A stretch of 64,000 bases of DNA, taken from the NCBI GenBank assembly GCA_027339205.1, contig DAHWOV010000114.1:750-64749 (forward strand). Direction: 5' to 3'. The position numbers and the translations under genes are program-made. Shown here in pieces: positions 6,184 to 48,777 of the stretch. The DNA is from Acidimicrobiaceae bacterium. Its GTDB lineage: Bacteria; Actinomycetota; Acidimicrobiia; Acidimicrobiales; RAAP-2. Below the pieces are notes generated by a model. That model did not search any database. It was not told where the DNA came from and saw only the letters and a list, made by a program, of their open reading frames with translations. Numbering within the stretch: position 1 is the stretch's first letter; each line of letters begins with the position of its first letter.

Positions 6184-8526
<2,343 letters not shown>

Positions 8527-8904
8527 CCTCGCCGTCCTTTCCGACCTACGTCCGTGCTGGGCCGCACGCCCGCGCGTCGAGGGCTGCGACTTGGTTCACG
8601 CCACCGACTTCGCTCAATGCACCTTCTCCGGTTCCACGCTGCCCTGCGCTGCGGGCCACACCTCATCTCGATCTTCTCGGGCTCTTCTCGGCTGGACATC
8701 TCCTCGGCGCCTGCCCGCTGCGTCCGATCGGCTCCTGGCCGCCCGCCGGCACGGGCACCGGCGGTGCCGTGCGGGAGGACGCCCCGAGGTACAGCCCCCG
8801 AGGCGCAGGGGACGATAGCCACCTCCTGGGCCACCGGCAAGAGCCGGGGCAGAGCCCCGCCAAGAGCCACCGGCAAGTGCGGGGCAAGAGCCGGCGGCGA
8901 CCCT

Positions 8905-8957: not shown

Positions 8958-11546
8958 TCATCCCGCCTCAGGTGGGACGAGGTCGCCATCGGTGTCCCGT
9001 TGGCCCACCAGCTCGTAGTCGGGGTTCAAGATGGCGAGCTTCCTCCCCCAGGCACCGACCATCCCCTCGGCCACCAGCCTCGCGCCGGGTTCGATCCCCG
9101 GGATCTTGGGGCGACCCTGGAAGACGAGGAGGATGCCGCCGGTCTGGTCGGCCAGGGTCGCTTCGAGATTGGAGGTGCCGGCGCTCGGCTGCACCCTGAC
9201 GGACTTGACGCGACCCGCGACCCTCACGCGCTGGCGCCACTCGACATCGCCGATGGGACGCGAGTCGATCGCCCGCTTCGCCAGTGCCTGGTCCGCATCG
9301 CTGAGCTGGGCCGTGCGGTCGGTCCGCTTCCTCTCGGGCAGCCGGTCCTTTGTGCCTTCCGCCCTCTGCGCTCCTTCTGCCTCTCCTCCCCCCCCTGGGG
9401 CCGCCCGTCGCTCGGGCGATGCCGTCGCAAAGCGTCGCCCGTTGCTCGCTGCGGTGGCGACGGCCTGTGCTGCCATACGCGCCGCCACGTTGCGCCTCGT
9501 CGCGCCGCGGGTCGACGAGCGGTGCAGGTTGTACGGCACGATGGTCGCGCTGACATGTGGCACCTGGCTCACGATGCCGGCGATCTTGTCGGCCGTCCGG
9601 TCGTGGAGGAGCCGCTGCCATCCCCAGACGAAGCCGCGGCGCGGGAGGATGACGGTGCACTCGGTGTCGCCGTCGGACACGGTCTCGGCGACCAGCTCGA
9701 GGGCGGCTCGCCCGAGTCGCCGGTCCGGCACCTCGACGATGTCGAGCGGCAGCCGGGAGAAGCCGAGGCGGCCCCACTCCGCCTCGAGCGCGCGGGTGGC
9801 CCTGCTGTCGATGTCGAAGTGGACCGCGCGCAGCTCGTCAGGCGACAGCGTCCGGGCGTACTGGATCGCCCTCGCCGTCGCCATGTCCAGGCTGTCCACA
9901 AGGACGATCACGGCGTGGTGGCGGAGGATCGGCTCCTGGGCCATCCCGGCCGCGCTCACCTCGAGCTCCTCATCCTCGCGAACGTACTGCCTGTGCATTC
10001 TGATGAGGCCCCAGTACATGAGCGGGCCCACGACGACCACCACCCACGCCCCCTCGAGGAACTTCGCGAAGGCGAAGATGAGCACCACGCTCGCGGTGAG
10101 CACGGCGGCGAAGCCGTTCACCAAGACGCTGCGCCGCCAGTGCGGCCCCCGCTCGCTGAGATGGTGCTTCACCAACCCCGAGCCCGCCATGGCGAACCCC
10201 GTGAACACCCCGATCGCGTACAGGGCCACGAGCGAGTCGACGTTCGCCCGGAACGCCGTGATCAACGCGAGCGACACGACCGCCAGCAGGACGATCCCGC
10301 TCGAGAAGGCGAGCCGGTGACCGCGGCGGGTCAGCTGGCGAGGGAGGAACTGGTCGCCCGCCACGAAGCTCGCCAGGTACGGGAACCCGTTGAAGCTGGT
10401 GTTGCCCCCCGTGTAGAGGATGAGCAGGGTCGCGATCTGCACCACGTAGTACACGACCCCGTGACCTGCGATGTCCTGCACCTCCTGGGAGAGCACGGTG
10501 GGAGACCCCGCGGCATAGGGGACCGCGTGCGTCCAGCGGGCGAGCATGGTGACGCCGAAGACGAGGAAGGCGAGGACCGAGCTCATCGCGACGAGCGTCA
10601 CCCGGGCGTTGCGCGACTCGGGCCGGCGGAAGGCGCTCACGCCGTTGGAGATCGCTTCGAGACCGGTGAGCGACGACCCACCGTTCGCGAACGAGCGCAG
10701 CAACGTGATGAACGCCAGCCCCATCAGCAACCCGCTCCCCGGCGATCCGAAGTGATGGCCGTAAAGGAGGTGATGCGGCGGGATCGGCCGGGGGTGCAGG
10801 TCGCCGAGCGCCGCCTTCACGTAGCCGGCCACGATCACCCCGGCCAGGCTGAGCACGAAGAAGTACGTCGGGAACGCGAAGAACTTTCCGGCTTCCCGGA
10901 TGCCGCGCAGGTTGCCGTAGAGGAGGACCAGCACGACGCCCACGGTGATGGGGACCGTCCAGGGCACCAGGGCGGGCACGGCGCTGGTCAACGCCGCCGT
11001 ACCCGCCGACGTCTGGACCGCGACGGTGACCGTGTAGTCGATGAGGAGAGCGACCGCGGCGACCTGGGCAACCTTGGGACCGAAGTTGTCCCGCGCCACC
11101 ACGTAGGAGCCTCCAGCCTTGGTGTACAGCCGGATCACGTCGAGGTACGAGAGGGTGACGAAGAAGAGGACGCCGAGGATCGCGAGGGTGATCGGCACGA
11201 CGAGCGTGAACGCCGCGAGCCCCACGAAGGGCACCAGCTGGGTGAGCATCTCCTCGGTGCCGTAGGCCGAGGACGAGATGCAGTCCGGCGCGAGCACGCC
11301 CAGCGCGATCGGCCGGCTGAGCCGCTCGCTGCGGAGCTGCTCGGAGACGAGGGGGGGACCGAGCAGCCGGTTCTTCAGGCGGTAACGGAGCGTCTCGGGG
11401 TACGCGGCGCCCGAGTCGACGGGTATGGCCGACGGCCGTGTCATCGACGGTGGCGGAAGCGGTCCCGCGACCGGCAGTCGGGTCGCGTCGGCTCCCTCGT
11501 CGTTGTCGGACATCCTCGCAAGCGTAGAGCTACACCGCCGGGGCAT
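8958..11546 (-). CDS. APC-superfamily permease with cytoplasmic C-terminal domain, fused to a C-terminal OB-fold domain
   Basis: 862-aa ORF. About 12 hydrophobic helices carry APC-type motifs (ISSSAYGTEE, GGSYVVARDNFG, ANGGSSLTGLEAISNG). A soluble domain and a low-complexity linker follow. The last ~110 aa (VEWRQRVRVAGRVKSVRVQPSAGTSNLEATLADQTGGILLVFQGRPKIPGIEPGARLVAEGMVGAWGRKLAILNPDYELV) look like the stand-alone OB-fold proteins found near actinobacterial trkA genes. The start is uncertain (11546 or the ATG at 11513). Confidence 0.8.
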   Translation of the reverse strand: MPRRCSSTLARMSDNDEGADATRLPVAGPLPPPSMTRPSAIPVDSGAAYPETLRYRLKNRLLGPPLVSEQLRSERLSRPIALGVLAPDCISSSAYGTEEMLTQLVPFVGLAAFTLVVPITLAILGVLFFVTLSYLDVIRLYTKAGGSYVVARDNFGPKVAQVAAVALLIDYTVTVAVQTSAGTAALTSAVPALVPWTVPITVGVVLVLLYGNLRGIREAGKFFAFPTYFFVLSLAGVIVAGYVKAALGDLHPRPIPPHHLLYGHHFGSPGSGLLMGLAFITLLRSFANGGSSLTGLEAISNGVSAFRRPESRNARVTLVAMSSVLAFLVFGVTMLARWTHAVPYAAGSPTVLSQEVQDIAGHGVVYYVVQIATLLILYTGGNTSFNGFPYLASFVAGDQFLPRQLTRRGHRLAFSSGIVLLAVVSLALITAFRANVDSLVALYAIGVFTGFAMAGSGLVKHHLSERGPHWRRSVLVNGFAAVLTASVVLIFAFAKFLEGAWVVVVVGPLMYWGLIRMHRQYVREDEELEVSAAGMAQEPILRHHAVIVLVDSLDMATARAIQYARTLSPDELRAVHFDIDSRATRALEAEWGRLGFSRLPLDIVEVPDRRLGRAALELVAETVSDGDTECTVILPRRGFVWGWQRLLHDRTADKIAGIVSQVPHVSATIVPYNLHRSSTRGATRRNVAARMAAQAVATAASNGRRFATASPERRAAPGGGGEAEGAQRAEGTKDRLPERKRTDRTAQLSDADQALAKRAIDSRPIGDVEWRQRVRVAGRVKSVRVQPSAGTSNLEATLADQTGGILLVFQGRPKIPGIEPGARLVAEGMVGAWGRKLAILNPDYELVGQRDTDGDLVPPEAG

Positions 11547-11645
11547 TTCGTGCCGGGCCGCCGGGGGTCACCCGCTCGGCGCGGGTGGCGCGGCCGGCGC
11601 GGGCGGCCTTTACAGCGGGCGGCGCGACGTGTAGCACTTGCCGGA

Positions 11646-12331
11646 TGCACGTCGTGGTGGTCGGCTGCGGACGGGTTGGCTCCGGACTCGCGGTCTCTCT
11701 GACCGCCGAGGGCCACTCGGTCGCGCTCATCGACCGGAACCCGCGCGCGTTCCGGCGCCTCCCCGACGACTGGCCGGGCCAGCGGGTGCACGGATCGGGA
11801 TTCGACCGGGACCACCTCGACGAGGCGGGGGCCAGGCGGGCGGACGCGCTCGCCGCGGTCACGAGCGGCGACAACAGCAACATCCTCACCGTGCGCATCG
11901 CACGGGAGACCTACGGGATCGATCACGTCGTCGCCCGCATCTACGATCCGCGCCGAGCCGAGATCTACCAGCGGCTCGGGATCCCCACCGTCGCGACCGT
12001 CACCTGGACCATCGACCAGGTGCGGCGCCGTCTGCTGCCCGACGTGGTCGCCACCGAGTGGTCCGACCCCTCGGGCAAGGTGCGGCTCATCCAGCGCGAG
12101 CTTCCAGAGGCGTGGGCGGGCCGGCGTCTCGCGGACATCGACCTGCCCGGCGAGATCTCCCTCGTCGCGGTGACCAGAGCGGGCGTGCCGCGCCTCGGCA
12201 CCGACGACCTGATCGGGCAGGAGGGGGACCTCCTCCACATCGCGGTCACCCATCACGCGCTCGAGGAGCTCCAACGGCGCTGCGCTGCGGGGCCCGGCCC
12301 GCTGGGCGAGCCCGAGCGAGCCCGCCGATGA
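11646..12331 (+). CDS. trkA: TrkA-family RCK protein (TrkA-N + TrkA-C), first of pair 1
   Basis: It starts MHVVVVGCGRVGSGLAVSL (GxGxxG Rossmann fold) and has a C-terminal TrkA-C-like segment (LPGEISLVAVTRAGVPRLGTDDLIGQEGDLLHIAV). I chose the ATG at 11646; the longer track ORF from 11585 has an Arg/Ala-rich extension. The stop overlaps the next gene (ATGA). Confidence 0.85.
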
Positions 12332-12993
12332 AGGTCGCCATCGCCGGGGCCGGGAGCGTCGGGACCGCCATCGCCCGGGACCTCCAGGCGAGCGGTCACG
12401 AGGTGCTCGTCCTCGAGCAGGATCCGGAGCTCGCCCAGCAACGCAGCGTCGAGCTGCCCCGGGTGCACTGGATCGCGGCGGACGCCTGCGAGGTCGCCTC
12501 GCTGGACGCAGCAGGGTTCTCGACCGTCGACGTGGTGGTCGCCGCCACGGGCGACGACGAGGACAACCTGGTCGTCTCGTTGCTCGCGAAGCAGGAGTTC
12601 GCGGTGCCGAGGGTCGTCGCGAGGGTCAACAACTCGAAGAACCAGTGGCTGTTCAACCAGAGCTGGGGGGTCGACGTCTACGTCTCCACGCCGCAGCTCC
12701 TCACCGCGCTGGTCGAAGAGGCGGTCTCGGTGGGGTCGCTCGTGCGCCTGCTGCAGTTCCAGGGGGGCACGGCCCATCTCGTCGAGGTGACGCTGGCCGA
12801 GGACTCGCCCGCCGACGGGGTCGCGATCGCCGACCTCGGGGTGCCGCGCGACGCGACCGTTGTCGCGGTCGTCCGGCGCGACCGGCTGGTCGTCCCGCGC
12901 GGCGACACGGTGCTGCAGTCGGGCGACGAGGTGCTCGTGCTCGTGACGAGCGACGTCGAGCAGACAGTCCGGAGCCTCTTCATCGGCACCTGA
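12328..12993 (+). CDS. trkA: TrkA-family RCK protein, second of pair 1
   Basis: MKVAIAGAGSVGTAIARDLQASGHEVLVLEQD, then a TrkA-C segment (HLVEVTLAEDSPADGVAIADLGVPRDATVVAVVRRDRLVVPRGDTVLQSGDEVLVLV). It lies inside the long track ORF 11638-12993, and the ATG at 12328 overlaps the upstream stop. Confidence 0.85.
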   Translation: MKVAIAGAGSVGTAIARDLQASGHEVLVLEQDPELAQQRSVELPRVHWIAADACEVASLDAAGFSTVDVVVAATGDDEDNLVVSLLAKQEFAVPRVVARVNNSKNQWLFNQSWGVDVYVSTPQLLTALVEEAVSVGSLVRLLQFQGGTAHLVEVTLAEDSPADGVAIADLGVPRDATVVAVVRRDRLVVPRGDTVLQSGDEVLVLVTSDVEQTVRSLFIGT

Positions 12994-35500: not shown

Positions 35501-35615
35501 CTCACCGGCGACGAGCGTCGCGCCTCAGCCTTCGCCGCGCAGGACGGCCCGGCTGCCGGCATTACCGGCACTCGTGCGCTGGTCCGCCCCGGCGCGCTGG
35601 TGCGACACTCGACTG

Positions 35616-38117
<2,502 letters not shown>

Positions 38118-38126
<9 letters not shown>

Positions 38127-38143
38127 CGAGAAGAGATGACGAG
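38118..38143. repeat. Perfect 13-bp x2 duplication at the ATPase/phosphoketolase junction
   Basis: AAGAGATGACGAG AAGAGATGACGAG. The first copy supplies the overlapping ATPase stop and the candidate xfp start (ATGA, 38123-38126). Confidence 0.8.
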
Positions 38144-40540
38144 AAGGGAGCCACGGGCACGATGAGCGCACTTCCGAGCAACGAGGGACCCCTGGCGCCG
38201 GACCAGCTGGCGGCGATGGACGCCTGGTGGCGGTGCGCCAACTACCTGGCGCTCGGCCAGACCTACCTGATGGAAAACCCGCTGCTCGAAGAGCCGCTCA
38301 CGCCCGAGATGATCAAGCCGACCCTCCTCGGGCACTGGGGCTCCGCGCCGGGGATGAACTTCATCTACGTCCACCTGAACCGGCTGATCACCACGTTCGA
38401 CCTGGACATGATCTACATCGCCGGGCCTGGCCACTGCGGCCACTCGATGATCGCCGGCGCCTATCTCGACGGCACCTACAGCGAGGTGTACCCGAGCGTC
38501 TCGCTCGACAAGGGGGGGCTGGCGCGCCTGTTCCGCCAGTTCTCCTTCCCTCGCGGAGTGCCGAGCCACGTGGCGCCCGAGACCCCCGGCTCCATCCACG
38601 AGGGTGGCGAGCTCGGCTACAGCCTGCTGCACGCGACGGGAGCGGTGTTCGACAACCCCGGGCTCGTCGTGGGCGCGATCGTCAGCGACGGGGAGTTCGA
38701 GACCGGCCCGCTGGCCGCCAGCTGGCACTCCAACAAGTTCCTCGACCCGACCAGAGACGGTGCAGTGCTGCCGATCCTCCACCTCGACGGGTACAAGATC
38801 GCGCTGCCCACCGTTCCGGCACGGCTCGAACCCGGGGAGCTCGACGAGCTGCTCCACGGCGCGGGCTGGGAGCCGGTGACCGTCGCGGGCGACGATCCGT
38901 TGGTCATGCACCAGCAGATGGCCGCCGCGCTCGACCACGCGGTGTCCGAGATCCGCTCGATCCAGGCACGCTGGCGCGCCGGCGAGGCGAAGGGGCGTCC
39001 GCGTTGGCCGATGGTGGTGCTGGCCTCCCCGGCAGGCTGGACCGCGCCCAAGACCGTCGACGGCCTCCCTGCCGAGGGGACCTGGCGCTGTCATCTCACC
39101 CCGCTCGAGCGGCCGCGGACCGACCCCGACCAGCTCGCCCAGCTCGAGACCTGGCTCCGCAGCTACCGCCCTGAGGAGCTCTTCGACGAGGCCGGCGCTC
39201 CCGTCCCCGAGATCCGGGCGCTCGCCCCCAGAGGCGCTGCCAGGATGAGCGCCAACCTGCACGCCAACGGCGGCACCCTCGCCCGAGAGCTCTTGCTCCC
39301 CGACATCGATCCCTACGGCGTCGCCGTCCCTTCACCGGGGAGCGTCGACGCCGAGGCCACCCGAGTCCTCTCGGCCTGGCTGCGCGACGTGCTCTCGGGC
39401 AACCCGGACCGGTTCCGGGTCTTCGGTCCCGACGAGACCTCCTCCAACCGCCTGAGCCACCTCTTCGAGGTCACCGACCACGAGTTCATGGGGGAGATCC
39501 GACCCACCGACGAGTCCCTCTCCCCGCACGGCCGGGTGATGGACGTGCTGAGCGAGCATCTCTGCCAGGGCTGGCTCGAGGGCTACCTGCTCACCGGGCG
39601 CCACGGCCTCCTCAACACCTACGAGGCGTTCGCCCACGTGATCGACTCGATGTTCAACCAGCACGCCAAGTGGATCTCCAAGTGCAAGGAGATCCCGTGG
39701 CGCCGACCCATCCCGTCACTCAATTACCTCCTCACCTCCCACGTGTGGCGCCAGGACCACAACGGCTTCACGCACCAGGACCCGGGGTTCTTGGACGTGA
39801 TGGTGAACAAGAAAGCCGAGGTCATCCGCATCTACCTCCCCCCCGACGCCAACTGCCTGCTCGCCGTGGCCGCGCACTGCCTGGCGTCGCGAGACCGCGT
39901 GAACGCGATCGTGGCCGACAAGCAGGCAGCACCGGTGTGGCTCGACATCGACGCCGCACAGCGGCACTGCTCGAGCGGCATCGGGATGTTCGAGTGGGCG
40001 AGCAACGACGACGGCGGGGAGCCGGACGTGGTCATGGCCTGCGCGGGCGACGTCCCCACGCTCGAGACCTTGGCGGCGGTGGACCTGTGCCGGCAGCGTT
40101 TCGGCGACCTCAAGATCCGCGTCGTCAACGTGGTCGACCTCATGGTCCTCGAGCCTCCCGGCGAGCACCCGCACGCGCTCAGCGACCAGGACTTCGACGA
40201 CCTGTTCACGAGGGACAAGCCGGTCGTCTTCGCCTTCCACGGCTACCCGTGGCTGATCCACCGGCTCACCTACCGGCGCACCAACCACGACAACATCCAC
40301 GTCCGCGGCTACAAGGAGGAGGGCAGCGTGACCACCCCGTTCGACATGGCCGTCGCCAACGACCTCGACCGCTTCCACCTTGTCGCCGACGTCGCCGAGC
40401 GCGTGCCGAAGCTCGCCCCGCACGCGGCGTCGACCAAGCAGTGGCGTCGCGACAAGCTCGCCGAGCACGAGCGCTACATCGTCGCCACCGGCGAGGACCT
40501 GCCCGAGGTGCGCAACTGGCGCTGGGGCGGGTCGAAGTGA
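38123..40540 (+). CDS. xfp: Xylulose-5-phosphate/fructose-6-phosphate phosphoketolase
   Basis: 805-aa ORF with [62 protein letters not shown] and the [14 protein letters not shown] signatures. The start may instead be the ATG at 38162. Confidence 0.95.
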
Positions 40541-40680
40541 CCGCCGAGGGCATCAACAGGGCGGCCCGCGCGGAGCACGCCTGAGGTCCGACCGGCAGGG
40601 GCTTCGCGTCATGGCATGCTCGCGGCCCGAGAGCCTGGACGACGAGCCGACTGCGTCCGCCGGCCGCGCTCGGAGGCCCG

Positions 40681-41688
40681 ATGATCGTGTTTGCGCTCGG
40701 CGTGGCAGGTGCGCTGGCCCTGGCCGCGCTACTCGGCGTCAGCGACGCCCCCAATGCCACGGCCGCGCTGCTCGCCGCGCGCACCGGGTCCTATCCCGCC
40801 GTGGCTGCGTGGTCCCTCGCCTGGCACGTCGCCGGCGGGCTCCTTGCCGGCGTGGCGGTGGCACGCACGGTCGCCGGGATCGTGCACGTCGGGTCAGAGG
40901 CGATCGTCCCGGTGATGGCAGCGGCCAGCCTCGCAGCTGTCGGCTTCACCTGGGCGACCACCCGCAGCGGCCTGCCGACCAGCGCGAGCGTGGGGCTCGT
41001 CGGAGGGCTCGCAGGTGCCGGGTTGGCAGCCGGCGGCGCAAGGGACGTGCAATGGGGCGGGCTCGCAGGGGTCCGGCCCATCGGCGTGCTCGGCGTGCTG
41101 ATCGGCATCCTCTTGGCGCCGCTGCTCGCAGCAGCCGCGGCGGGGATCGTGGACCAGCTCGCCCGCCGGATGGCCTTCCGCCTTCCGCGGTCGGCCAGGC
41201 GGCAGCTGCACGGGGGACTGTGGGTGGCCTCGGCGGCCGTCGCCGTCGCCGACGGGACGAACGACGGGCAGAAGGCGATGGGCGTCCTCGCCTTGGTCGT
41301 CTCCGGCTCGGGATCGCTCGCTGGCGCCGGTGGCGTCGCGCCGTGGGAGCGGGTGTCGTGCGCGCTCATCCTGGGTGCCTTCACCGTGATCGGAGGACGC
41401 AGGGTGGTCGCACGCGTCGCGCACGGCCTGGCGCGCGGAGGGGCGGTCGACGACCTCGCAGCGCAGCTCGCGTCGGCTGGCGTCATCCTGGCGGCCGCCG
41501 CTGTCGGGCTGCCGCTCTCCACCTCCACCGTGGTCACCTCGGGGATGGTCGGAGCAGGGGTGTCCGGGCGACGCCGGCACGTGCGCTGGGCCGGCGTAGC
41601 CCGCATCTTCGTGGTCTGGGCACTGACGGTGCCGGCATGCGCCGTCATCGGGGCCGGCGCGTTCGAGGTGCTCCGGAGGATCCCGTGA
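40681..41688 (+). CDS. PiT-family inorganic phosphate transporter (short, ~335 aa type)
   Basis: Polytopic ORF. The two halves each carry the PiT-like signature (GVSDAPNATAALLAA and VADGTNDGQKAMGVL). Confidence 0.85.
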   Translation: MIVFALGVAGALALAALLGVSDAPNATAALLAARTGSYPAVAAWSLAWHVAGGLLAGVAVARTVAGIVHVGSEAIVPVMAAASLAAVGFTWATTRSGLPTSASVGLVGGLAGAGLAAGGARDVQWGGLAGVRPIGVLGVLIGILLAPLLAAAAAGIVDQLARRMAFRLPRSARRQLHGGLWVASAAVAVADGTNDGQKAMGVLALVVSGSGSLAGAGGVAPWERVSCALILGAFTVIGGRRVVARVAHGLARGGAVDDLAAQLASAGVILAAAAVGLPLSTSTVVTSGMVGAGVSGRRRHVRWAGVARIFVVWALTVPACAVIGAGAFEVLRRIP

Positions 41689-42320
41689 GCGCGAAGCAGG
41701 GGCGGCACCACAGGTTCCGGCGGATCTTCCTGGAGGCGGCGCCCGACGTCGTCGGGCTGCTCGTGGCGCAGGGCGAGATCAGCACGGCGGCCACCGCCGC
41801 GTTCCTCGAGTGGTCCGAGGGGGGCGGGGACGGCGGTGCAACCCTCACGACACTCGAGCACCGGGCGGACGAGGCACGCCGGACGCTCCTGGCCGCGCTG
41901 CGCTCAGCGCTCGCAACCCCGATCGACCAGGAAGACCTCTACATCCTCTCGGAGCGATGCGACCGGGTCGTGAACGCGGTCCGGGACATCGCCGTCGAGG
42001 CCGAGGCGCTCGCGTGGAAGCCCGACCAGCATGCTGCGCTGATGGCCGGACATCTCCACGCCGGCATGATGGCGCTGGTGGACGGGTTCGCGAACCTCCG
42101 CCACGACTTCGACAAGGCGGGGGTCGCCGCCGATCGGGCGAGGGCACAGGCCCGGACGGTGGTGCGGCGGTACCGGGACGCCATCGCCGACGTCTACCTG
42201 TCGGAGGACCTCCAGGCGGCCGTGATCGGCCGCGAGCTCTACCGGCCGTACGCACGGGCGGCGGACCGCCTGGAGGCGGTCGCGGACCGCCTGTGGTACG
42301 TGGTGCTCGCCGACGTCTGA
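41685..42320 (+). CDS. DUF47/PhoU-like phosphate-transport regulator
   Basis: GTG at 41685 overlaps the pit stop (GTGA). The helical 211-aa protein has LEHRADEARRTLLAAL..PIDQEDLYILSERCDRVVNAV..LYRPYARAADRLEAVADRLWYVVL, typical of the YkaA/DUF47 partners of short PiT transporters. Confidence 0.8.
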   Translation: MSAKQGRHHRFRRIFLEAAPDVVGLLVAQGEISTAATAAFLEWSEGGGDGGATLTTLEHRADEARRTLLAALRSALATPIDQEDLYILSERCDRVVNAVRDIAVEAEALAWKPDQHAALMAGHLHAGMMALVDGFANLRHDFDKAGVAADRARAQARTVVRRYRDAIADVYLSEDLQAAVIGRELYRPYARAADRLEAVADRLWYVVLADV

Positions 42321-42449
42321 GCGGCGTGCTCGCCGGCTCCTGAGCGGCGTGCTCGCCGGCTTCCACCTTCGCCTTGGCCGCCCCACCTCCCGCGCGTTCG
42401 CGGGCTTTCGGCCCTGGCCGGACGACCGTGTCGGGATCCACACTGCGGT

Positions 42450-45365
42450 GTGGGGATCGGCACGGGCACCGGCACCGGGAGTGGCACGGGCACCGGCACC
42501 GGGATCGGCACGGGCACCGACGAGGAATGGCGCGCGACCGGGCGCACATCAGGCCCGGCGCGCTCCCTCACGTCTCTCGGCGCCGATGAGGCCCTCGCCG
42601 CCCTCGACAGCTCGCGCCGTGGGCTCACGCAAGACGCGGTCGCCGCGCGCCGGGCCACCTCGGGTCGCAACGTGCTGCCTCCGCCGCCGCGCCGGCCGGT
42701 GCTCGCAGAGATCGCGGCCCAGTTCACCAACATGTTCGCCGTCATCCTGGTGGTGGCAGCGGGGCTCACCTTCCTCACCTACCTGCTCTCCACCCCGCGC
42801 GACCCGGCCAACCTCGAGCTCACGTTCGGGATCCTGGCCGTCGTGGTGCTCAACGCGGCGATCGGCTTCGCCCAGGAGCACGCGGCGGAGCGAACGGCCG
42901 AGACGCTCCAGAGCATGCTGCCCCACACCGCCCGGGCGCTGCGCGCCGGACAGCTCACCGAGCTGGGGGTCGACGAGCTGGTCCCCGGCGACCTGGTGGT
43001 GCTCGAAGCCGGCGACGCCGTGCCGGCCGACGGCCGGGTCGTCGAAGCCCACGAGCTGGCCGTCGACATGGCCGCGCTCACCGGGGAGAGCCAGCCGGTC
43101 AGCCGGACCGACCAGCCGGTGGAGCCCGGCACGGCGCCGCTCGACGCCCGCAACTGCGTGTTCATGGGCACCTCGGTCGTGCGCGGCTCCGCCAAGGCCG
43201 CCGTCTTCGCCACCGGGACCGCCACCGAGATCGGCCGCGTCTACCGGCTGACCGCCGAGCAGCCCCCCGAGCCGAGCCCGCTCCAGCGCCAGGTCGCCGA
43301 CATGGCCCGGCGGGTGGCCGCGATCGCCATCGCCGTGGGCGCCCTCGTCTTCGCCCTGCGCATCCTCACCGGCAACGCCGCGGTCGACTCCTTCGTCTTC
43401 GCCCTGGCGGTGATGGTGGCACTCGTGCCCGAGGGGCTCCCTGCCACCCTCTCGGTCTCCCTCGCCGTCGGGGTGCGGCGCATGGCGGCGCGCCAGGCGC
43501 TCATCAAGCGGCTCGCCGCCGTGGAGGCACTCGGATCCACGACGGTGATCTGCACCGACAAGACCGGCACCCTCACCAAGGCGGAGATGACCACCCAGCA
43601 GGTCTACGCCTCGGGCCACGTCCACCGCGTGAGCGGGGTGGGCTACGAGCCGGTCGGTCGAGTGGAGGATCCCGAGCCGATCCTCGGGGTGCTCCGTGCC
43701 GGTGCGCTGTGCACCGACGCGCGCATCTTGCCGCCGTCGGGTCGGGAGGACTGGCGGGTGCTCGGCGACACCACCGAGGGAGCCATCGTGGTGGCGGCCA
43801 TGAAGGCGGGCCTCGACCTCGATGCCGAGTCCGCGCTGACGCCGCGCGTCGGCGTCTTCCCCTTCGACCCGGACCGCAAGCTCATGACCACGCTGCACCG
43901 GACCCCCGACGGGGTCGTGGCCCACGTGAAGGGGTCCCCGCAGGCCGTGCTCGAGCGCTCCGTCTCTGCCGAGTGGGACGGGCGGACCGTGCCGCTCGAC
44001 GACGGGCTGCGCCGGCAGATCGCCGCGGCCAACGACGCGATGGCCCACCAGGGGCTGCGGGTCCTCGCCGTCGCCGACAAGGCGCTGCGCGACGCGAAGG
44101 CGGCCCAGGACGACGCCGAGTCGGGTCTCAGCTTCCTCGGGCTGATCGGGATGGCCGACCCGCCGCGACCCGAGGTCAGCGCGGCGGTCGAGGCCTGCCA
44201 CCGTGCGGGGATCGCGATCATCATGGTCACCGGCGACTACGGGCTCACCGCCGAGACGGTGGCCCGCCGGGTGGGCATCATCGCTGCTGGGCCGGCCCGG
44301 GTGGTCACCGGGGCCGAGCTGGACGCGATGGACGACGACTCCCTGTCGTCGTTGCTCGGCGGGGGCGAGCAGCTGATCTTCGCCCGGGTGCGCCCCGAGC
44401 ACAAGATGCGCATCGTCTCGGCGCTCGAGAGCCGGGGCGAGGTCGTGGCCGTCACCGGCGACGGGGTCAACGACGCGCCCGCGCTGAAGAGGGCGAGCGT
44501 CGGCGTGGCCATGGGACGCAGCGGCACCGACGTGGCACGGGCGGCGGCGGTGATGGTCCTGCTAGACGACTCCTTCGCCTCGATCGCCGCGGCCGTCGAG
44601 CTCGGGCGGTCCGTCTACCAGAACATCCGCCACATGCTCGCCTACATCTTCAGCCACAACCTCGCAGAGCTGGCACCGATCCTCGTCGCCGTCTTCGTCG
44701 GCTTCCCCTTGGTGCCGATCAACGCGCTCCAGGTGCTCTCGATCGACCTCGGCTCCGACGTGCTCCCGGGCATGGCACTGGGCATCGAACGGCCCGAGCC
44801 CGGCACCATGGACCGTCCGCCACGCCCCACCACCGAGCACCTCTTCTCCTGGGAGGTGGTGCGCAGGTTCCTGTTCCTCGGGACGATCGAGTCGGCCGGC
44901 GTCGTCTTCGCCTTCTTCTGGCGGATCCATTCCGCCCACCTGCCCTACTCGGCGTTCACCTCGTCGAACCCCACCTACCGGGAGGCCCTCACCATGACCC
45001 AGGTCGGCATCATCATCAGCCAGTTCTTCAACATGTTCGCCGTGCGCAGCGACCGCCAGAGCGTCCTTCGGATCGGGCTGCTCTCGAACCGGCCCCTCCT
45101 CGGCGCGGCCGTCGTCGACGTGGTCATCGCGGTGGCCGTCAGCTACGTCCCGGCCCTCCAGGCGCTCTTCCACACCGCTCCCCTCCGGCTCTCGGACTGG
45201 CTGGTCCTGACCGGCTTCGGTGCGCTGCTCCTCCTCGCCGACGAGGCGCGCAAGGCGTCGCACCGCCGTACCGGGAGGCGCCGCTGCGTCTCCGGGCACT
45301 CCGGCGGGGGCCCGCCCACCGCCCCGAGCCGCTCCACCGCCCTCGCACACGACCTGGAGGCCTGA
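42450..45365 (+). CDS. P-type ATPase, P2 family, with Na,K/H,K-like M5/M6 residues
   Basis: LTGESQPV, ICTDKTGTLTKAEMT, MVTGDYGLTA, VTGDGVNDAPALKRASVGVAMG. M4 is VPEGLPATLSV, M5 is YIFSHNLAELAP and M6 is LSIDLGSDVLPGMALG. The N-terminus begins with a (GT)n repeat (GIGTGTGTGSGTGTGTGIGTGT). The stop overlaps the trkA start (TGATG). Confidence 0.85.
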   Translation: MGIGTGTGTGSGTGTGTGIGTGTDEEWRATGRTSGPARSLTSLGADEALAALDSSRRGLTQDAVAARRATSGRNVLPPPPRRPVLAEIAAQFTNMFAVILVVAAGLTFLTYLLSTPRDPANLELTFGILAVVVLNAAIGFAQEHAAERTAETLQSMLPHTARALRAGQLTELGVDELVPGDLVVLEAGDAVPADGRVVEAHELAVDMAALTGESQPVSRTDQPVEPGTAPLDARNCVFMGTSVVRGSAKAAVFATGTATEIGRVYRLTAEQPPEPSPLQRQVADMARRVAAIAIAVGALVFALRILTGNAAVDSFVFALAVMVALVPEGLPATLSVSLAVGVRRMAARQALIKRLAAVEALGSTTVICTDKTGTLTKAEMTTQQVYASGHVHRVSGVGYEPVGRVEDPEPILGVLRAGALCTDARILPPSGREDWRVLGDTTEGAIVVAAMKAGLDLDAESALTPRVGVFPFDPDRKLMTTLHRTPDGVVAHVKGSPQAVLERSVSAEWDGRTVPLDDGLRRQIAAANDAMAHQGLRVLAVADKALRDAKAAQDDAESGLSFLGLIGMADPPRPEVSAAVEACHRAGIAIIMVTGDYGLTAETVARRVGIIAAGPARVVTGAELDAMDDDSLSSLLGGGEQLIFARVRPEHKMRIVSALESRGEVVAVTGDGVNDAPALKRASVGVAMGRSGTDVARAAAVMVLLDDSFASIAAAVELGRSVYQNIRHMLAYIFSHNLAELAPILVAVFVGFPLVPINALQVLSIDLGSDVLPGMALGIERPEPGTMDRPPRPTTEHLFSWEVVRRFLFLGTIESAGVVFAFFWRIHSAHLPYSAFTSSNPTYREALTMTQVGIIISQFFNMFAVRSDRQSVLRIGLLSNRPLLGAAVVDVVIAVAVSYVPALQALFHTAPLRLSDWLVLTGFGALLLLADEARKASHRRTGRRRCVSGHSGGGPPTAPSRSTALAHDLEA

Positions 45366-46024
45366 TGCACCTGGTGATCATCGGCTGCGGCCGGACCGGC
45401 TCCACCCTCGCCGCCCGCTTCGACAGCGAGGGCGACAGCGTCTCGGTGGTCGACGACGATCCACAGTCGCGCCGCAGGCTCCCTGACGAGTTCGGGGGCG
45501 AGTTCATCGAGGGCGACGGGCTCGATCGCCAGGTCCTCGAGGCCGCGGGCATCGAGGACGCCGAGGCGCTGATCGCGGTCAGCTCCAGCGACGCCACGAA
45601 CGTCGTCGTCGCCCGTGCGGCGCGTGACCTCTTCCACGTCCCCCACGTCGTCGGGCGCATCGACGACCCCGCCCGTGCCCAATTTGGGGTCGACCTCGGG
45701 CTCACCATGATCGCCACGGTGCGCACCACGGTGGACCGGGTGCACCGGATGCTCCGCCACCCCCGCCTCGAGCCCGAGCGCACCTTCGGCAACGGCGAGA
45801 CGCTGCTCGTACGCGCACCGGTCCCCGACTACCTGGCCGGGAGGAAGGTGGCCGAGCTCGACGTGCCCGGAGAGATCCAGGCGGTCGAGGTCAGCAGGGG
45901 CGGGCACTCCACGATCCCCGCCGGCACCGCGACCCTCCAGACCGGCGACGTCGTGAGCTTCGTCGTGGCCGCCGCCTCGCTCGGGCGGCTCCGCTCGTTC
46001 CTCGGAGGGAGGTGGCCGCAATGA
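45365..46024 (+). CDS. trkA: TrkA-family RCK protein, first of pair 2
   Basis: MHLVIIGCGRTGSTLAARF (GxGxxG) and a TrkA-C segment (LLVRAPVPDYLAGRKVAELDVPGEIQAVEVSRGGHSTIPAGTATLQTGDVVSFVV). It lies within long track ORF 43709-46024. The ATG shares its A with the ATPase TGA. Confidence 0.85.
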   Translation: MHLVIIGCGRTGSTLAARFDSEGDSVSVVDDDPQSRRRLPDEFGGEFIEGDGLDRQVLEAAGIEDAEALIAVSSSDATNVVVARAARDLFHVPHVVGRIDDPARAQFGVDLGLTMIATVRTTVDRVHRMLRHPRLEPERTFGNGETLLVRAPVPDYLAGRKVAELDVPGEIQAVEVSRGGHSTIPAGTATLQTGDVVSFVVAAASLGRLRSFLGGRWPQ

Positions 46025-46716
46025 ACATCGTGGTGGCCGGCGCAGGCACGGTGGGCACGCAGGTCGCCGTCGCCCTGGTCGACGCCGGCAACACCGTGAC
46101 CCTGGTCGACCTCGATCCCGGACGCGCCGCGCAGCTGGCCGGCCGGGGCCTGGGCGTCGTCGTCGGCGACGCCGCCGTCGCCGCGACCCTCGAGGAGGCG
46201 GGAGGGCTCCGCGCGGACGTGCTCGTGGCGTGCACCGGTCAGGACCCCGAGAACCTCGTCATCTCGCTGCTCGCACGCCGGCGCCTCGAGTTCCCCCGCG
46301 TCGTCGCCCGGGTGAAGGACGAGCGCCACCGCTGGCTCTTCGACGAGACGTGGGGGGTCGACGCCGCCATCTCGTCGGCGGGGTCACTGGTGCACCTCAT
46401 CGAGGAAGCCACCGGATCGGCTCGCACCGTCCGCCTGGCCGATCTGTCGGCCGTCGGCCTGGTCCTCGTAGAGGCCACGGTCGGCGCGACGTCGGCAGCC
46501 CGGGGGCGCCTGGTCACGGATCTCGGGCTCGACCGCCACGACCTCGCGGCCGCGGTCATCCGCCACGGCAGGTCGATCCCGACGACCGCCGCCCGCCAGC
46601 TGCGGGTGGGAGACAGGGTGCTCGTGATCACGCGCCCGGGAGGCGAAGACGGCGTCCAGCGCGTCTTCTACCCCGACGACGCGGGAACGCCGGGTGCCAG
46701 TGACGCCCCTTCGTGA
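46021..46716 (+). CDS. trkA: TrkA-family RCK protein, second of pair 2
   Basis: MNIVVAGAGTVGTQVAVALVDAGNTVTLVD and a TrkA-C segment (VLVEATVGATSAARGRLVTDLGLDRHDLAAAVIRHGRSIPTTAARQLRVGDRVLVI). The ATG at 46021 overlaps the upstream stop (ATGA). Confidence 0.85.
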   Translation: MNIVVAGAGTVGTQVAVALVDAGNTVTLVDLDPGRAAQLAGRGLGVVVGDAAVAATLEEAGGLRADVLVACTGQDPENLVISLLARRRLEFPRVVARVKDERHRWLFDETWGVDAAISSAGSLVHLIEEATGSARTVRLADLSAVGLVLVEATVGATSAARGRLVTDLGLDRHDLAAAVIRHGRSIPTTAARQLRVGDRVLVITRPGGEDGVQRVFYPDDAGTPGASDAPS

Positions 46717-46746
46717 CGCCCCTTCGTGACGCCCCTTCGTGACGGG
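46701..46746. repeat. 13-bp x3.5 tandem repeat TGACGCCCCTTCG at the end of trkA
   Basis: Copies start at 46701, 46714 and 46727, with a partial copy at 46740. Because 13 is not a multiple of 3, the TGAs fall in all three frames. The trkA stop is the TGA of copy 2. Confidence 0.8.
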
Positions 46747-46794
46747 AGCTGCCGACACGACGTCCTCCGCGTCGGCGAGCGTCCGACTCCTGCG

Positions 46795-48777
46795 CTACGG
46801 CTGCAACGCGACCGGATGCTCGGTCAGACGGCGAACCGCCCAGGGAAGCGCGACCGACGCGGCGGTCGCTCCGGCGGCGTTGCCCAGGGCGATCCCCCAG
46901 CCGACCGGCCCCATGGGGGTGCAGCCGAAGAACTGGCTCACCACGGGCGTCTGGACGATCGCCACGAGGACCCCGGCCGACGCGGCCGTCGACGCGAGCA
47001 CGAGCGGGCTCGTTCTCCCGACGACCGCCGTCTGCCCGAGCTGCGTGCCGACCAGCCCGACGAGCGCGACGGTGCCGGCCCGCCTCGAGCTCCCGGTCGG
47101 CAGTGCCATCAGCCACGCGCCGAAGGCGCCAGCCGACGTCGCGGCGGCGCGAAGGGCGACCTGGCGGGCGAGCGCGCCGCCGAGCGAGGCGTCGGGCCCC
47201 TCGTGGAGGAGCTCCTCGGGGGTGCGCCCCGGCGGCGCTCGCAGGGCGATCGTCATCGCAGGCATCATGTCGGTAAGGAGGTTCACCAAGAGGAGCTGGC
47301 GCGCCCCGAGCGGGGACGCACCGGAGATGGCCGTCGAACCGAGCACGAAGCCAATCTCGCCCAGGTTCCCCCCGACGAGGATCGCGAGCGCGTCCCGGAC
47401 TGACGCCCACATCGCCCGCCCTTCGACGATCGCGTCCGTGATCGTCTCGATGCGATCGTCGAGGACGACCAGGTCCGCCGCTGCCCGCGCAGCCGGAGAC
47501 CCGTGCCCACCGAGCGCGATGCCGGTGTCGGCAAGCCGGATCGCCGGCGCGTCGTTGGCGCCGTCACCAGTCATGGCGACCGTGCGCCCGACGCGCTGGT
47601 AGGCGCGCACGATCCGCATTTTCTGCTCGGGCGTGACGCGGGCGAAGACGGTCGCACCGGCGACTGCGGCGTCGAGGAGATCGTCGTCCCAGGCGTCGAT
47701 GTCCGCCCCGGTGATGACGTCTGCGCCGTTGAGGATGTCCAGTTCCTCGGCGATGCTCGCCGCGGTCGAGGGATGGTCGCCGGTGATCATCACGACGGAG
47801 ACGCCCGCCGCCCGAAGGCTCGCCACGGAGGCCGCCGCCGTCGGGCGCACCCCGTCGGCCAGTCCGAGGAAGCCGAGCAGCTCCATGCCGGCGATGCGCT
47901 CGTCACCCAAGGCCGCGCTGAGAGAGGCCGGCCGCTCCGCGACGGCGAGGACCCGCAGGCCCTGGCCTGCCAAGTGCTCCACCTGCGCGTCGAGGTACGC
48001 CCGGACGCGCCGGCCGAGCGCCACGGGGCCGTCGGGCGACCTCCACGTGGTGCAGCGGGGCAGCACGACCTCCGGGGCGCCCTTCACCGAGACCCGCGGC
48101 CCGACGGCGCTGTCGCCCACGACGGCGTGGTATCCCCGGGAGGGCTCGAACGCCAGCTCGCCGAGGAGGGTCCAGCCGCCGAGGCCGTCTTGCGCCTGCA
48201 CCCCGGCGGCCTGCGCGCCCTCGACGACCGCTCGATCGGTGGCGTGGGGAAGGTCGCCCTCGGTGTCCGACACCGGACTGGCTCGCAACGCCGCCGCGAG
48301 GACGTACTCGCACCGGGGGGCGAGCTCTGTGAGCTTCTGCACCTGGACGCCGTCCGACACGCTCTGCAGCGCGATCCTGCCGGCGGTGAGCGTGCCCGTC
48401 TTGTCGAAGCACAAGACCTCCACCCGGCCGAGCGCCTCGATCGTCCGCGGGTTGCGGACCAGCACACCGCGGCGGGCAAGTCGTCGGGCCGCCGCCAGCT
48501 GGGCCACGGTGGCCAGCAGCGGAAGGCCCTCGGGCACCGCTGCGACGGTGAGGCTCACCCCTGAGGTCACCGCGACGCGTGGCGAGCGTCCCCGCAGCAG
48601 GCCGAGGCCGACGACGGCAGCGCCGCTGGCGACTGACGCGGGGACGGTCACCTTCATGAGCGAGCTCAGCCGTGCCTCCACCCCGCTCGGCGGCGGCTCG
48701 GGCGCGCCGGCGAGGGTCCGGCCGACCTCGGTCTCGTCCCCCACGGCGACCACGACTCCGAGGGCGCTCCCGGTCAT
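46795..48777 (-). CDS. C-terminal (catalytic) fragment of a giant CtpH/CtpI-like P-type ATPase
   Basis: AVPEGLPLLATV, CFDKTGTLTAGR, MITGDHPSTA, MTGDGANDAPAIRLADTGIALG, NLLTDMMPAM. Similarity to the A-domain consensus (GSVVMTGSALGVVVAVGDETEVG) begins upstream of the first plausible ATG (48777). It therefore looks like the continuation of 48777-51260 in another frame. Confidence 0.75.
   Translation of the reverse strand: MTGSALGVVVAVGDETEVGRTLAGAPEPPPSGVEARLSSLMKVTVPASVASGAAVVGLGLLRGRSPRVAVTSGVSLTVAAVPEGLPLLATVAQLAAARRLARRGVLVRNPRTIEALGRVEVLCFDKTGTLTAGRIALQSVSDGVQVQKLTELAPRCEYVLAAALRASPVSDTEGDLPHATDRAVVEGAQAAGVQAQDGLGGWTLLGELAFEPSRGYHAVVGDSAVGPRVSVKGAPEVVLPRCTTWRSPDGPVALGRRVRAYLDAQVEHLAGQGLRVLAVAERPASLSAALGDERIAGMELLGFLGLADGVRPTAAASVASLRAAGVSVVMITGDHPSTAASIAEELDILNGADVITGADIDAWDDDLLDAAVAGATVFARVTPEQKMRIVRAYQRVGRTVAMTGDGANDAPAIRLADTGIALGGHGSPAARAAADLVVLDDRIETITDAIVEGRAMWASVRDALAILVGGNLGEIGFVLGSTAISGASPLGARQLLLVNLLTDMMPAMTIALRAPPGRTPEELLHEGPDASLGGALARQVALRAAATSAGAFGAWLMALPTGSSRRAGTVALVGLVGTQLGQTAVVGRTSPLVLASTAASAGVLVAIVQTPVVSQFFGCTPMGPVGWGIALGNAAGATAASVALPWAVRRLTEHPVALQP

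Follow-up and report, generated by a model that had tools for sequence, protein, structure and literature searches.

A conserved three-gene unit suggests that a pair of RCK proteins may regulate a bacterial P2-type cation pump

RCK domains are standard regulators of K+ channels and of some antiporters, and the locus described here raises the question of whether they might also control an ATP-driven pump. In a stretch of 64,000 nt at 72% G+C from an Acidimicrobiaceae bacterium (GCA_027339205.1, contig DAHWOV010000114.1, positions 750 to 64,749, forward strand; hereafter the window, beyond which neighbouring genes are outside our view), the gene for a P2-type ATPase runs directly into genes for two small proteins of the TrkA kind, which we call RCK1 and RCK2. 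A sequence-only reading of the window had proposed a monovalent-cation pump with its own RCK ring and knew of no description of such an arrangement. We are highly confident that pump, RCK1 and RCK2 make up a conserved functional operon. The pattern suggests, as far as sequences can, that RCK regulators, known from K+ channels and antiporters, also control an ATP-driven pump. In agreement with the earlier remark on novelty, a search of the full-text literature, with most subscription journals outside its scope, turned up no P-type ATPase described as having an RCK or TrkA partner and no report of a primary pump with an RCK regulator. The building blocks (RCK regulators, P2 pumps and prokaryotic Na,K-like sequences) are known, and it is their conserved coupling that appears to be new. 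Public annotation treats the pump and the RCK genes as unrelated generic entries.

The pump gene (42450..45365, + strand) encodes 971 aa, which Pfam, NCBIfam and PDB comparisons together with a clade alignment place in a beta-less prokaryotic family resembling Na,K-ATPases. Its stop codon shares a base with the start codon of RCK1 (45365..46024, +; 219 aa) at the junction gccTGATGcac (45363-45367), and the stop of RCK1 overlaps the start of RCK2 (46021..46716, +; 231 aa) in the sequence gcaATGAac (46021-46024). A Shine-Dalgarno sequence, GGAGG, stands 4 nt upstream of RCK1 at 45356-45360, and the Shine-Dalgarno-like GGAGGGAGG, which contains GGAGG, lies at 46004-46012 upstream of the RCK2 start. 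According to Pfam both small proteins consist of TrkA_N and TrkA_C; RCK1 has the Rossmann motif GCGRTG, with R10 and D30 invariant, and RCK2 is a second paralogue that is 25% identical to it. The GTG at 42450 is the sole in-frame start that retains the N-terminal domain of the pump. Codons 1 to about 22 form a 24-nt tandem repeat, and the nearest homologues measure 933 aa, i.e. 38 aa less.

Is this arrangement confined to one genome? We sampled at least 80 pump loci from a scan of one genome per species, so that the fractions given here are not population estimates, and counted linkage for pumps with at least 700 nt of readable downstream sequence. Among these loci and the window, 19 pumps in 17 loci are directly followed by an RCK1-type and then by an RCK2-type gene. 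Over 30 modules the order pump-RCK1-RCK2 is always the same, with a median distance of -1 nt from pump to RCK1 (20 of 30 overlap, 28 of 30 lie within 40 nt) and with RCK2 within 40 nt of RCK1 in 26 of 28 cases. The hosts belong to at least five bacterial phyla. They comprise Actinomycetota (the chromosome of Streptomyces sp. NBC_01210, plasmid p1 of S. fungicidicus, Streptosporangiaceae, Acidimicrobiia, Thermoleophilia and Nitriliruptoraceae), Bacillota (two Thermoanaerobacterium species, Thermacetogeniaceae and Eubacteriales), Chloroflexota (Anaerolineales and a Phototrophicaceae metagenome-assembled genome, MAG), Geomonas and Rokubacteria; Streptomyces and Thermoanaerobacterium are cultured. 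The neighbourhood survey that the sequence-only reading had called for thus came out in its favour: within the clade of the window pump a trkA pair adjoins the pump at L001, L003, L004, L081, L095, L098, L099 and L100, L002 being the sole exception, and the pair recurs in four other phyla. The association also depends on the type of pump, as the pair accompanies 19 of 62 sampled Na,K-like pumps (M6 motif IDLG(S/T)D/E) and none of 20 Ca-type pumps (LWxNxxTD). The reverse test gave the same picture. We built a profile from 16 RCK1 proteins of pump modules and compared it with 5.8 billion proteins; all seven of the top matches examined lay directly after a P2 ATPase and before RCK2, namely those of Streptomyces sp. 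NBC_01210 (CP108549.1), Thermoanaerobacterium thermosaccharolyticum (CP117247.1), a Phototrophicaceae MAG and four other MAGs.

The unit appears to be self-contained. Three close relatives of the pump (93, 74 and 70% identity) also carry the triplet, and that on S. fungicidicus plasmid p1 is annotated merely as 'cation-transporting P-type ATPase' and 'TrkA family potassium uptake protein'. Around the unit, each lineage has a different set of genes; upstream of the 93%-identical pump stand Hsp20 and a hypothetical gene, not the PiT and DUF47 genes that precede the window pump. Because even so close a relative has a different neighbourhood, only the three genes travel together, and the unit is inherited, and apparently relocated, as one operon. 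The position downstream of PiT/DUF47, which the sequence-only reading had made part of its description, is therefore true of the window and not conserved beyond it. We considered PiT/DUF47 as a component of the system and rejected it, as among the 29 other modules these genes flank only that of L003, where they are downstream and inverted. In two Eubacteriales MAGs (L008, 3767-12161; L014, 7962-16408) the whole unit is present in tandem duplicate, with one RCK pair per pump. The two pumps of L008 differ in their ion-site motifs, YFQTSNVAEMIP / IDLLTDQVP in one and YIFTSNMPELIP / IDLGTDMLP in the other, and their sequences suggest a divergence of specificity after duplication. L002, whose pump is 68% identical and has no pair, keeps the TGATG junction, which leads into a 16-codon open reading frame (ORF), MLVVSCKTGPVTTSMW (MLVVSCKTGPV...; 2729-2790). 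Judged by its sequence, this ORF may be the decayed start of RCK1, which suggests a recent deletion of the pair.

What kind of pump is it? It carries the five P2 domains of Pfam (Cation_ATPase_N, E1-E2_ATPase, Cation_ATPase, Hydrolase and Cation_ATPase_C), and the catalytic motifs that define the P-type superfamily are complete (TGES211, DKTGT370 and TGDGVND669). No curated NCBIfam subfamily claims it: it scores 605.8 bits with the PMR1-type model TIGR01522 (cut-off 798.3), 557.7 bits with the SERCA-type TIGR01116 (cut-off 703.4) and 523 bits with the IIC-type TIGR01106 of Na,K/H,K alpha subunits (cut-off 946.1). Over the full length it matches solved structures about equally well, with SPCA1 at 483 bits, LMCA1 at 480 and Na,K-ATPase at 464. 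For the M5-M10 part alone, the best matches are the non-gastric H,K-ATPase (ATP12A) and Na,K-ATPases, the alignment reading AYIFSHNLAELAP / AYTLTKNIAELCP in M5 and LSIDLGSDVLP / LFIDLGTDIIP in M6. The three ion-site motifs singled out by the sequence-only reading (M4 VPEGLPAT, M5 YIFSHNLAELAP and M6 LSIDLGSDVLP) are indeed present, and are invariant or near-invariant in 18 relatives. Around them, E328 (M4), Y732, S735, H736, N737 and E740 (M5), D766, S769 and D770 (M6), and Q858 and N861 (M8) form a set of 11 ion-site residues that is invariant across these 18 relatives at 64-93% identity.

For the comparison with animal pumps we use the pig alpha1 Na,K-ATPase numbering of the ion site (E327, N776, E779, D804 and D808, as well as S775 and, for Na+ site III, D926). 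E328, N737, E740, D766 and D770 align to ATP12A as the P2C residues do. His736 occupies the S775 position, which is Lys in H,K-ATPases, and Asn861 the D926 position. The M6 Ca2+ residues of SERCA1a are N796, T799 and D800; in place of this Asn...Thr-Asp the pump has D766, S769 and D770. The earlier assignment of M6 to the Asp-x-x-x-Asp type of Na,K/H,K-ATPases, not to the NxxTD type of Ca2+ pumps, is borne out by D766 and D770 and by the best matches of M5-M6, and the placement of the pump that had been proposed as a check yields the same result, a P2C-like M6 in a protein below all curated P2 equivalog cut-offs. The ion site is shared with a large prokaryotic family and is not peculiar to this gene. 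The Na,K-like motif set VPEGLLPT; Y..(S/T)(S/H)N..E; IDLG(S/T)D; Q..N occurs in 65 of 85 sampled prokaryotic P2 pumps, and the other 20 are of the distinct Ca-type LWxNxxTD. Neither the window pump nor any of the 88 prokaryotic pumps whose sequences were checked has the SYGQ/E motif of beta assembly, and in the window pump the loop between M7 and M8 is short. Since prokaryotic alpha-like sequences that lack the beta motif have already been recorded (PMC9609216), the ion-site observation is right but not new by itself. A subgroup of Na,K-like pumps (L009, L013, L074 and L084) has M5 YIFAH(L/A)TPE and M6 IDLGTE, with Asn776 replaced by Leu or Ala and Asp808 by Glu, which on sequence predicts a different ion site; L009, L013 and L084 are RCK-linked and L074 is not. 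Public annotation calls the window pump a 'Ca2+-transporting ATPase' or 'P-type Ca2+ transporter type 2C', and public data assign an identical copy of it to an Actinomycetota MAG.

If the pump is an RCK target, one might look for residues that distinguish linked pumps. Comparison of 19 linked with 43 unlinked Na,K-like pumps gave seven columns that separate the two (425, 429, 499, 528, 529, 602 and 607), with R425, P429, N528, D529, E602 and R607 as the residues typical of RCK-linked pumps. All seven, placed relative to the KGSPQ and MVTGD motifs, fall in the cytoplasmic N and P domains; the membrane and the C-terminal tail contribute none. Of the four residues N528, D529, E602 and R607, three or more are present in 18 of 19 linked pumps versus 3 of 62 unlinked ones (Fisher p = 5e-14), and the N-D-E-R set is complete in 7 of 7 pumps found independently via RCK1. 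This signature is the best available hint from the sequences as to where the RCK proteins might act. We also considered L002 as a natural experiment, and found it unconvincing: its pump departs from the signature only by E602Q and N528D, and L004 also has N528D.

The RCK proteins themselves are of the TrkA/KtrA kind. Both match TrkA best in NCBIfam, and the best PDB match of each is Vibrio TrkA (90 bits for RCK1 and 70 bits for RCK2), followed by the TM1088A/B ring. GxGxxG and the acidic residue after beta2 are kept in both; G7, G9, R10, G12 and D30 are invariant in RCK1, and RCK2 has GAGTVG...D30. With about 25-30% identity between them, RCK1 and RCK2 form two clean paralogue groups in constant order. 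Their pairwise identities rise and fall with those of the pumps (r = 0.80 for RCK1 and 0.84 for RCK2, Mantel p = 2e-4), a correlation to which shared species history contributes. In the pump tree, the RCK-linked pumps fall in two large groups; because all our trees are neighbour-joining (NJ) trees that carry no support values, we make no claim on monophyly or on the number of origins.

The window holds a further TrkA pair, unmentioned in the sequence-only reading, 33 kb upstream of the pump module. At this housekeeping locus (8961-12993), an RCK1-type TrkA of 228 aa (11645..12331, +; 40% identical to the pump-linked RCK1) overlaps by ATGA an RCK2-type TrkA of 221 aa (12328..12993, +; 39% identical to the pump-linked RCK2), and an APC-family permease (AA_permease_2; 8961..11567, -) is divergent from the pair. 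Because the window also holds this housekeeping pair, the pump-linked one is an additional, paralogous pair. In a plasmid-collection search, RCK1-like genes (38-39% identity) of Nonomuraea gerenzanensis (L096) and Streptomyces sp. BHT-5-2 (L097) were likewise followed by an RCK2-like gene, with no pump and with an APC-family permease on the other strand, as in the window; at L097, DUF3159 and KdpD genes lie downstream. The window housekeeping pair matches the Nonomuraea pair at 235-243 bits, the pump-linked pair only at 105-138 bits. The pump-linked pair is thus not orthologous to the housekeeping pair and does not have its setting (APC permease, DUF3159). It does have the split-TrkA organization, an RCK1-type followed by an RCK2-type protein encoded by adjacent overlapping genes, and since the housekeeping proteins nest within the RCK1 and RCK2 groups of the NJ tree, both kinds of pair belong to one split-TrkA family. 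P93 and G142 of RCK1 are present in 100% of 24 pump-linked proteins, and are D/E and P in three housekeeping ones. The housekeeping layout is probably that of the ceoB/ceoC locus of Mycobacterium tuberculosis. The M. tuberculosis Trk system is described as 'consisting of two TrkA proteins' (PMC13163235). The APC permease may be the membrane partner of this TrkH-less housekeeping pair.

Does the pump-linked pair have another membrane partner close by? No TrkH or KtrB was found among the top 25 of 137 Pfam families in the 96 neighbouring ORFs of 16 linked loci, nor in single scans of all 10 neighbour ORFs with at least four predicted transmembrane segments and of 10 other large ORFs. The sizeable ORFs of the window that were scanned contain no TrkH, KtrB or Kef protein, and hence no Trk/Ktr membrane subunit, which upholds what the sequence-only reading had said of the vicinity.

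What might the three proteins do together? The pump would move a monovalent cation, our best guess being K+ uptake in exchange for H+ or Na+, by means of a single subunit whose cation sites resemble sites I and II of Na,K/H,K-ATPases in their make-up. RCK1 and RCK2 would form a hetero-oligomer with adenine or nicotinamide nucleotides as its ligands and possibly, at its TrkA_C lobes, c-di-AMP as well. This assembly would dock on the cytoplasmic N and P domains of the pump and toggle ATP-driven transport according to the energy or K+ status of the cell, as TrkA/KtrA rings gate TrkH/KtrB. Three things make us favour a monovalent cation, most plausibly K+: sites I and II are P2C-like, some neighbours of the module are related to K+, and RCK regulators have a bias towards K+. 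The physical contact of pump and RCK proteins, the ligand, the ion and the direction of transport are what we infer, nucleotide sensing by analogy with TrkA/KtrA. For the full model, a beta-less, probably K+-handling monovalent-cation pump regulated by a nucleotide-binding RCK1/RCK2 assembly, our confidence is modest and lies a little on the favourable side. We hold only tentatively, as a possibility we would not yet back, the bolder claim that RCK1/RCK2 is a hetero-oligomeric nucleotide sensor docked on the N and P domains, which would make the module a third class of bacterial ATP-dependent K+ transport, its pump the first primary ion pump to be gated by RCK proteins, and split-TrkA pairs modular regulators of partners other than TrkH.

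Several points weigh against this model. An adjacent RCK pair is lacking in 43 of the sampled Na,K-like prokaryotic pumps, among them all those of the Bathyarchaeia, Nitrospira/proteobacterial and cyanobacterial groups, and L002 has lost it. The best full-length profile and PDB matches of the pump are PMR1/SPCA1 and LMCA1 Ca2+ pumps. RCK-linked pumps vary at the ion site, those of Thermoanaerobacterium having Leu for N776 and Glu for D808, and, with His at the S775 position and Asn at the D926 position of the window pump, the stoichiometry and even the ion are uncertain. The Fisher test of the N/P-domain signature uses the very sample from which the columns were selected and ignores phylogeny. 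Of 8172 representative RCK1 relatives, the best 150 include no fusion of a pump with an RCK protein; the long matches are double-RCK proteins like TrkA. Finally, RCK rings gate dimeric channel-like proteins, and it is hard to picture how such a ring would engage a P-type ATPase.

It would be tempting to explain the locus without any contact between pump and RCK proteins. The RCK pair might gate a Trk/Ktr-type channel or another K+ transporter encoded elsewhere and share with the pump nothing but a transcript, which would, for example, let the cell make its Na+ extrusion and K+ uptake systems together. Such co-regulation would suit the best matches of both RCKs to TrkA in NCBIfam and PDB and the fact that their closest paralogues, the housekeeping pair, work with no adjoining pump, and with only 64 kb of genome in view TrkH/KtrB may lie elsewhere. 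However, the stop-start overlap of pump and RCK1 is kept across five phyla, duplicated units hold one RCK pair per pump, residues in the N and P domains of the pump track the presence of the pair, the scanned neighbours at the 16 census loci include no TrkH/KtrB, and a separate housekeeping pair is already present in the genome. We therefore consider co-transcription with a distant partner unlikely, both in its general form and as joint Na+ extrusion and K+ uptake. That cation pump and TrkA genes adjoin by chance and with no functional meaning is scarcely credible, and the neighbourhood survey refutes it. Actinomycetota often have TrkA pairs and often P-type ATPases, the window alone holding two of the former and genes for four of the latter, yet chance would have to produce 30 modules, in phyla and surroundings that are unrelated, with one gene order and near-zero spacing, a reverse test of 7/7 and an association confined to one type of pump.

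A different objection accepts the regulator and questions the ion. On this view the pump, in line with its public annotation, would export Ca2+ (or Mn2+) as pumps of the PMR1/LMCA1 kind do, with the RCK pair as its regulator. Its source annotations call it a Ca2+ transporter, its highest full-length scores are with TIGR01522 (606 bits) and the SPCA1 and LMCA1 structures (483 and 480 bits), and M7-M10 aligns end to end with SPCA1/LMCA1 and not with Na,K-ATPase. But the PMR1-type score remains below the curated cut-off (606 < 798), M6 has Asp766 at a position that is Asn in all sampled Ca2+ pumps and Ser769 at one that is mostly Thr in them, M5 reads Y..SHN..E in P2C style, and the RCK pair was found with 0 of 20 sampled Ca-type pumps. 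Moreover, both RCKs are of the nucleotide-binding (GxGxxG) kind, from which the Ca2+-sensing kind of MthK and BK would differ. A Ca2+ exporter thus seems quite improbable to us, and we retain the RCK-regulated monovalent-cation pump as the preferred model.

How does the module compare with known systems? As in TrkAH and KtrAB, TrkA_N + TrkA_C proteins with an intact nucleotide-binding motif are encoded beside their presumed membrane partner, and the two RCK units correspond to the two halves of a full-length TrkA; unlike in those systems, the adjoining membrane protein is a P-type ATPase instead of TrkH/KtrB, and the RCK units are two gene products. With the alpha subunits of Na,K/H,K-ATPases (P2C) the pump shares M4 VPEGL, M5 Y...(S/T)xN..E, M6 IDLG(S/T)D and the M8 Gln, but it lacks SYGQ/E, has a short M7-M8 loop and resembles SPCA1/LMCA1 in M7-M10. 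The housekeeping split-TrkA pairs (CeoB/CeoC-type) consist of the same two kinds of paralogue, encoded in like order by overlapping genes, with 39-40% identity in the window; they differ in being divergent to an APC-family permease, followed by DUF3159 (L097), and in having no pump. Antiporters offer a case of RCK on a transporter that is not a channel, the RCK of KefC being a weak PDB match to the window RCKs; KhtTU and CpaA are further RCK-regulated antiporters, and all three are secondary transporters of the CPA family, not primary pumps. A precedent for a heteromeric RCK1/RCK2 assembly comes from Thermotoga maritima, where two adjacent RCK gene products, TM1088A and TM1088B, form one octameric ring (PMC4380455). 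Both are among the PDB matches of the window RCKs; however, TM1088A has no C-lobe, whereas both window RCKs have TrkA_N and TrkA_C, and the presumed partner there is a Trk transporter. In Kdp, K+ passes through the channel-like KdpA and the P1A ATPase KdpB, and KdpD-dependent serine phosphorylation regulates the system (PMC7535926, PMC11018627). KdpFABC is likewise an ATP-driven K+ system in need of a post-translational shut-off, and kdp genes or a DUF4118 kinase lie beside some modules, but the P2 pump of the module has its own canonical ion sites and RCK partners.

The neighbourhoods of the module in other genomes show some recurrent features. Two-component systems recur near it, and at L088 a DUF4118 (KdpD-type) kinase and an OmpR-type regulator are directly upstream. 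In a Thermoleophilia genome (L005, 384-14820), the pump-RCK1-RCK2 unit stands close to kdpA, to the gene of a CPA-type Na+/H+ exchanger and to that of an APC permease with a fused Usp domain, and the locus looks like a densely packed set of K+ homeostasis genes; it also has a weak match to P-type ATPases, an unconfirmed candidate for a kdpB fragment. An H+-pyrophosphatase gene lies directly downstream of RCK2 in two lineages, Thermoanaerobacterium (L009 and L083-L085; 8574-10709) and an unrelated MAG (L092; 7415-9406), and that of the window (6187-8595, -) adjoins the housekeeping TrkA pair instead. The Streptomyces module (L081, NBC_01210; L095, S. fungicidicus p1) is located among Usp genes (in several copies) and nitroreductase, Hsp20 and BON/CBS genes, together with Pyridox_ox_2, an Rv1733c-like gene, NAPRTase and a GAF-GAF-HisKA_3 kinase. 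This set resembles the mycobacterial DosR dormancy regulon, which hints at a role or expression of the Streptomyces module in dormancy or hypoxia.

In the window, the genes upstream of the pump, outside the conserved module, are those of a PiT (PHO4 family) phosphate transporter (40681..41688, +; PF01384, E 1e-42) and of its usual companion, a DUF47/PhoU_div protein (41685..42320, +; PF01865, 29.5 bits against a cut-off of 24.4). The TGA stop of pit and the GTG start of the DUF47 gene share bases in the sequence cccGTGAgc, and 129 nt separate the latter gene from the pump. The earlier description of these genes (GTGA, TGATG at 45363-45367, ATGA at 46021-46024, a pump of 971 aa and a gap of about 130 nt) was accurate throughout. 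All five ORFs from pit to RCK2 have a third-position G+C content (GC3) of 0.88-0.95, as real genes of this genome should. A scan of 40300-47300 for promoters and terminators detected nothing and, because of the 72% G+C, is uninformative. A DosR/OsdR-like box, GGGCTTTCGGCCC, noticed by eye about 55 nt upstream of the pump start, was dropped, as its half-site spacing is one base shorter than that of the consensus.

Among the other P-type ATPase genes of the window, that of a type IIIA plasma-membrane-type H+-ATPase (35574 onward; TIGR01647, 622 bits, just above the cut-off of 615.5) ends in a 4-nt overlap with the start of a phosphoketolase gene (38123-40540), an unusual pairing of a proton pump with an enzyme of central carbon metabolism (35574-40540). 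Converging on RCK2 with a gap of 78 nt, the region 46795-51260 (-) encodes one P-type ATPase of about 1500 aa split over two frames, 48777-51260 and 46795-48897, which overlap by about 120 nt; it has an N-terminal extension of about 640 aa with a weak HMA match, and the profile match breaks cleanly within the A domain. Either the gene is a frameshifted pseudogene or the assembly is wrong at this point. Tandem repeats with short units (13-27 nt in 2-4 copies) are numerous, with 22 rows in 64 kb, and several sit exactly on gene ends, for example at 38112-38146 (the H+-ATPase/phosphoketolase junction) and 42303-42361 (the DUF47 stop). One at the 5' end of the pump gene (42453-42519) codes for the Gly/Thr-rich GIGTGTGT..., and a perfect array of 3.5 copies of 13 nt spans the RCK2 stop (46700-46744). 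A change of copy number in the 13-nt and 23-nt arrays would alter the reading frame, and the abundance of repeats could be real hypervariability or an artefact of assembly or polishing.

If our reading is correct, a conserved and dedicated RCK pair would extend the targets of RCK proteins to primary pumps, and would add a new mode of P-type ATPase regulation to regulatory peptides, autoinhibitory tails and phosphorylation. The pump is a member of a poorly studied prokaryotic sister group of the animal Na,K/H,K-ATPases, and a simple bacterial pump whose regulator is defined would help in studying how Na,K-type sites evolved; cultured Streptomyces and Thermoanaerobacterium carry the module. Its paralogy with the housekeeping pair also leads to a testable idea on the TrkH-less 'Trk' pairs of Actinomycetota. 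The partner of a split-TrkA pair would be the P2 pump in the module and an APC-type permease at the housekeeping locus, which, if true, would explain why the mycobacterial 'Trk' system has been named with only two TrkA proteins.

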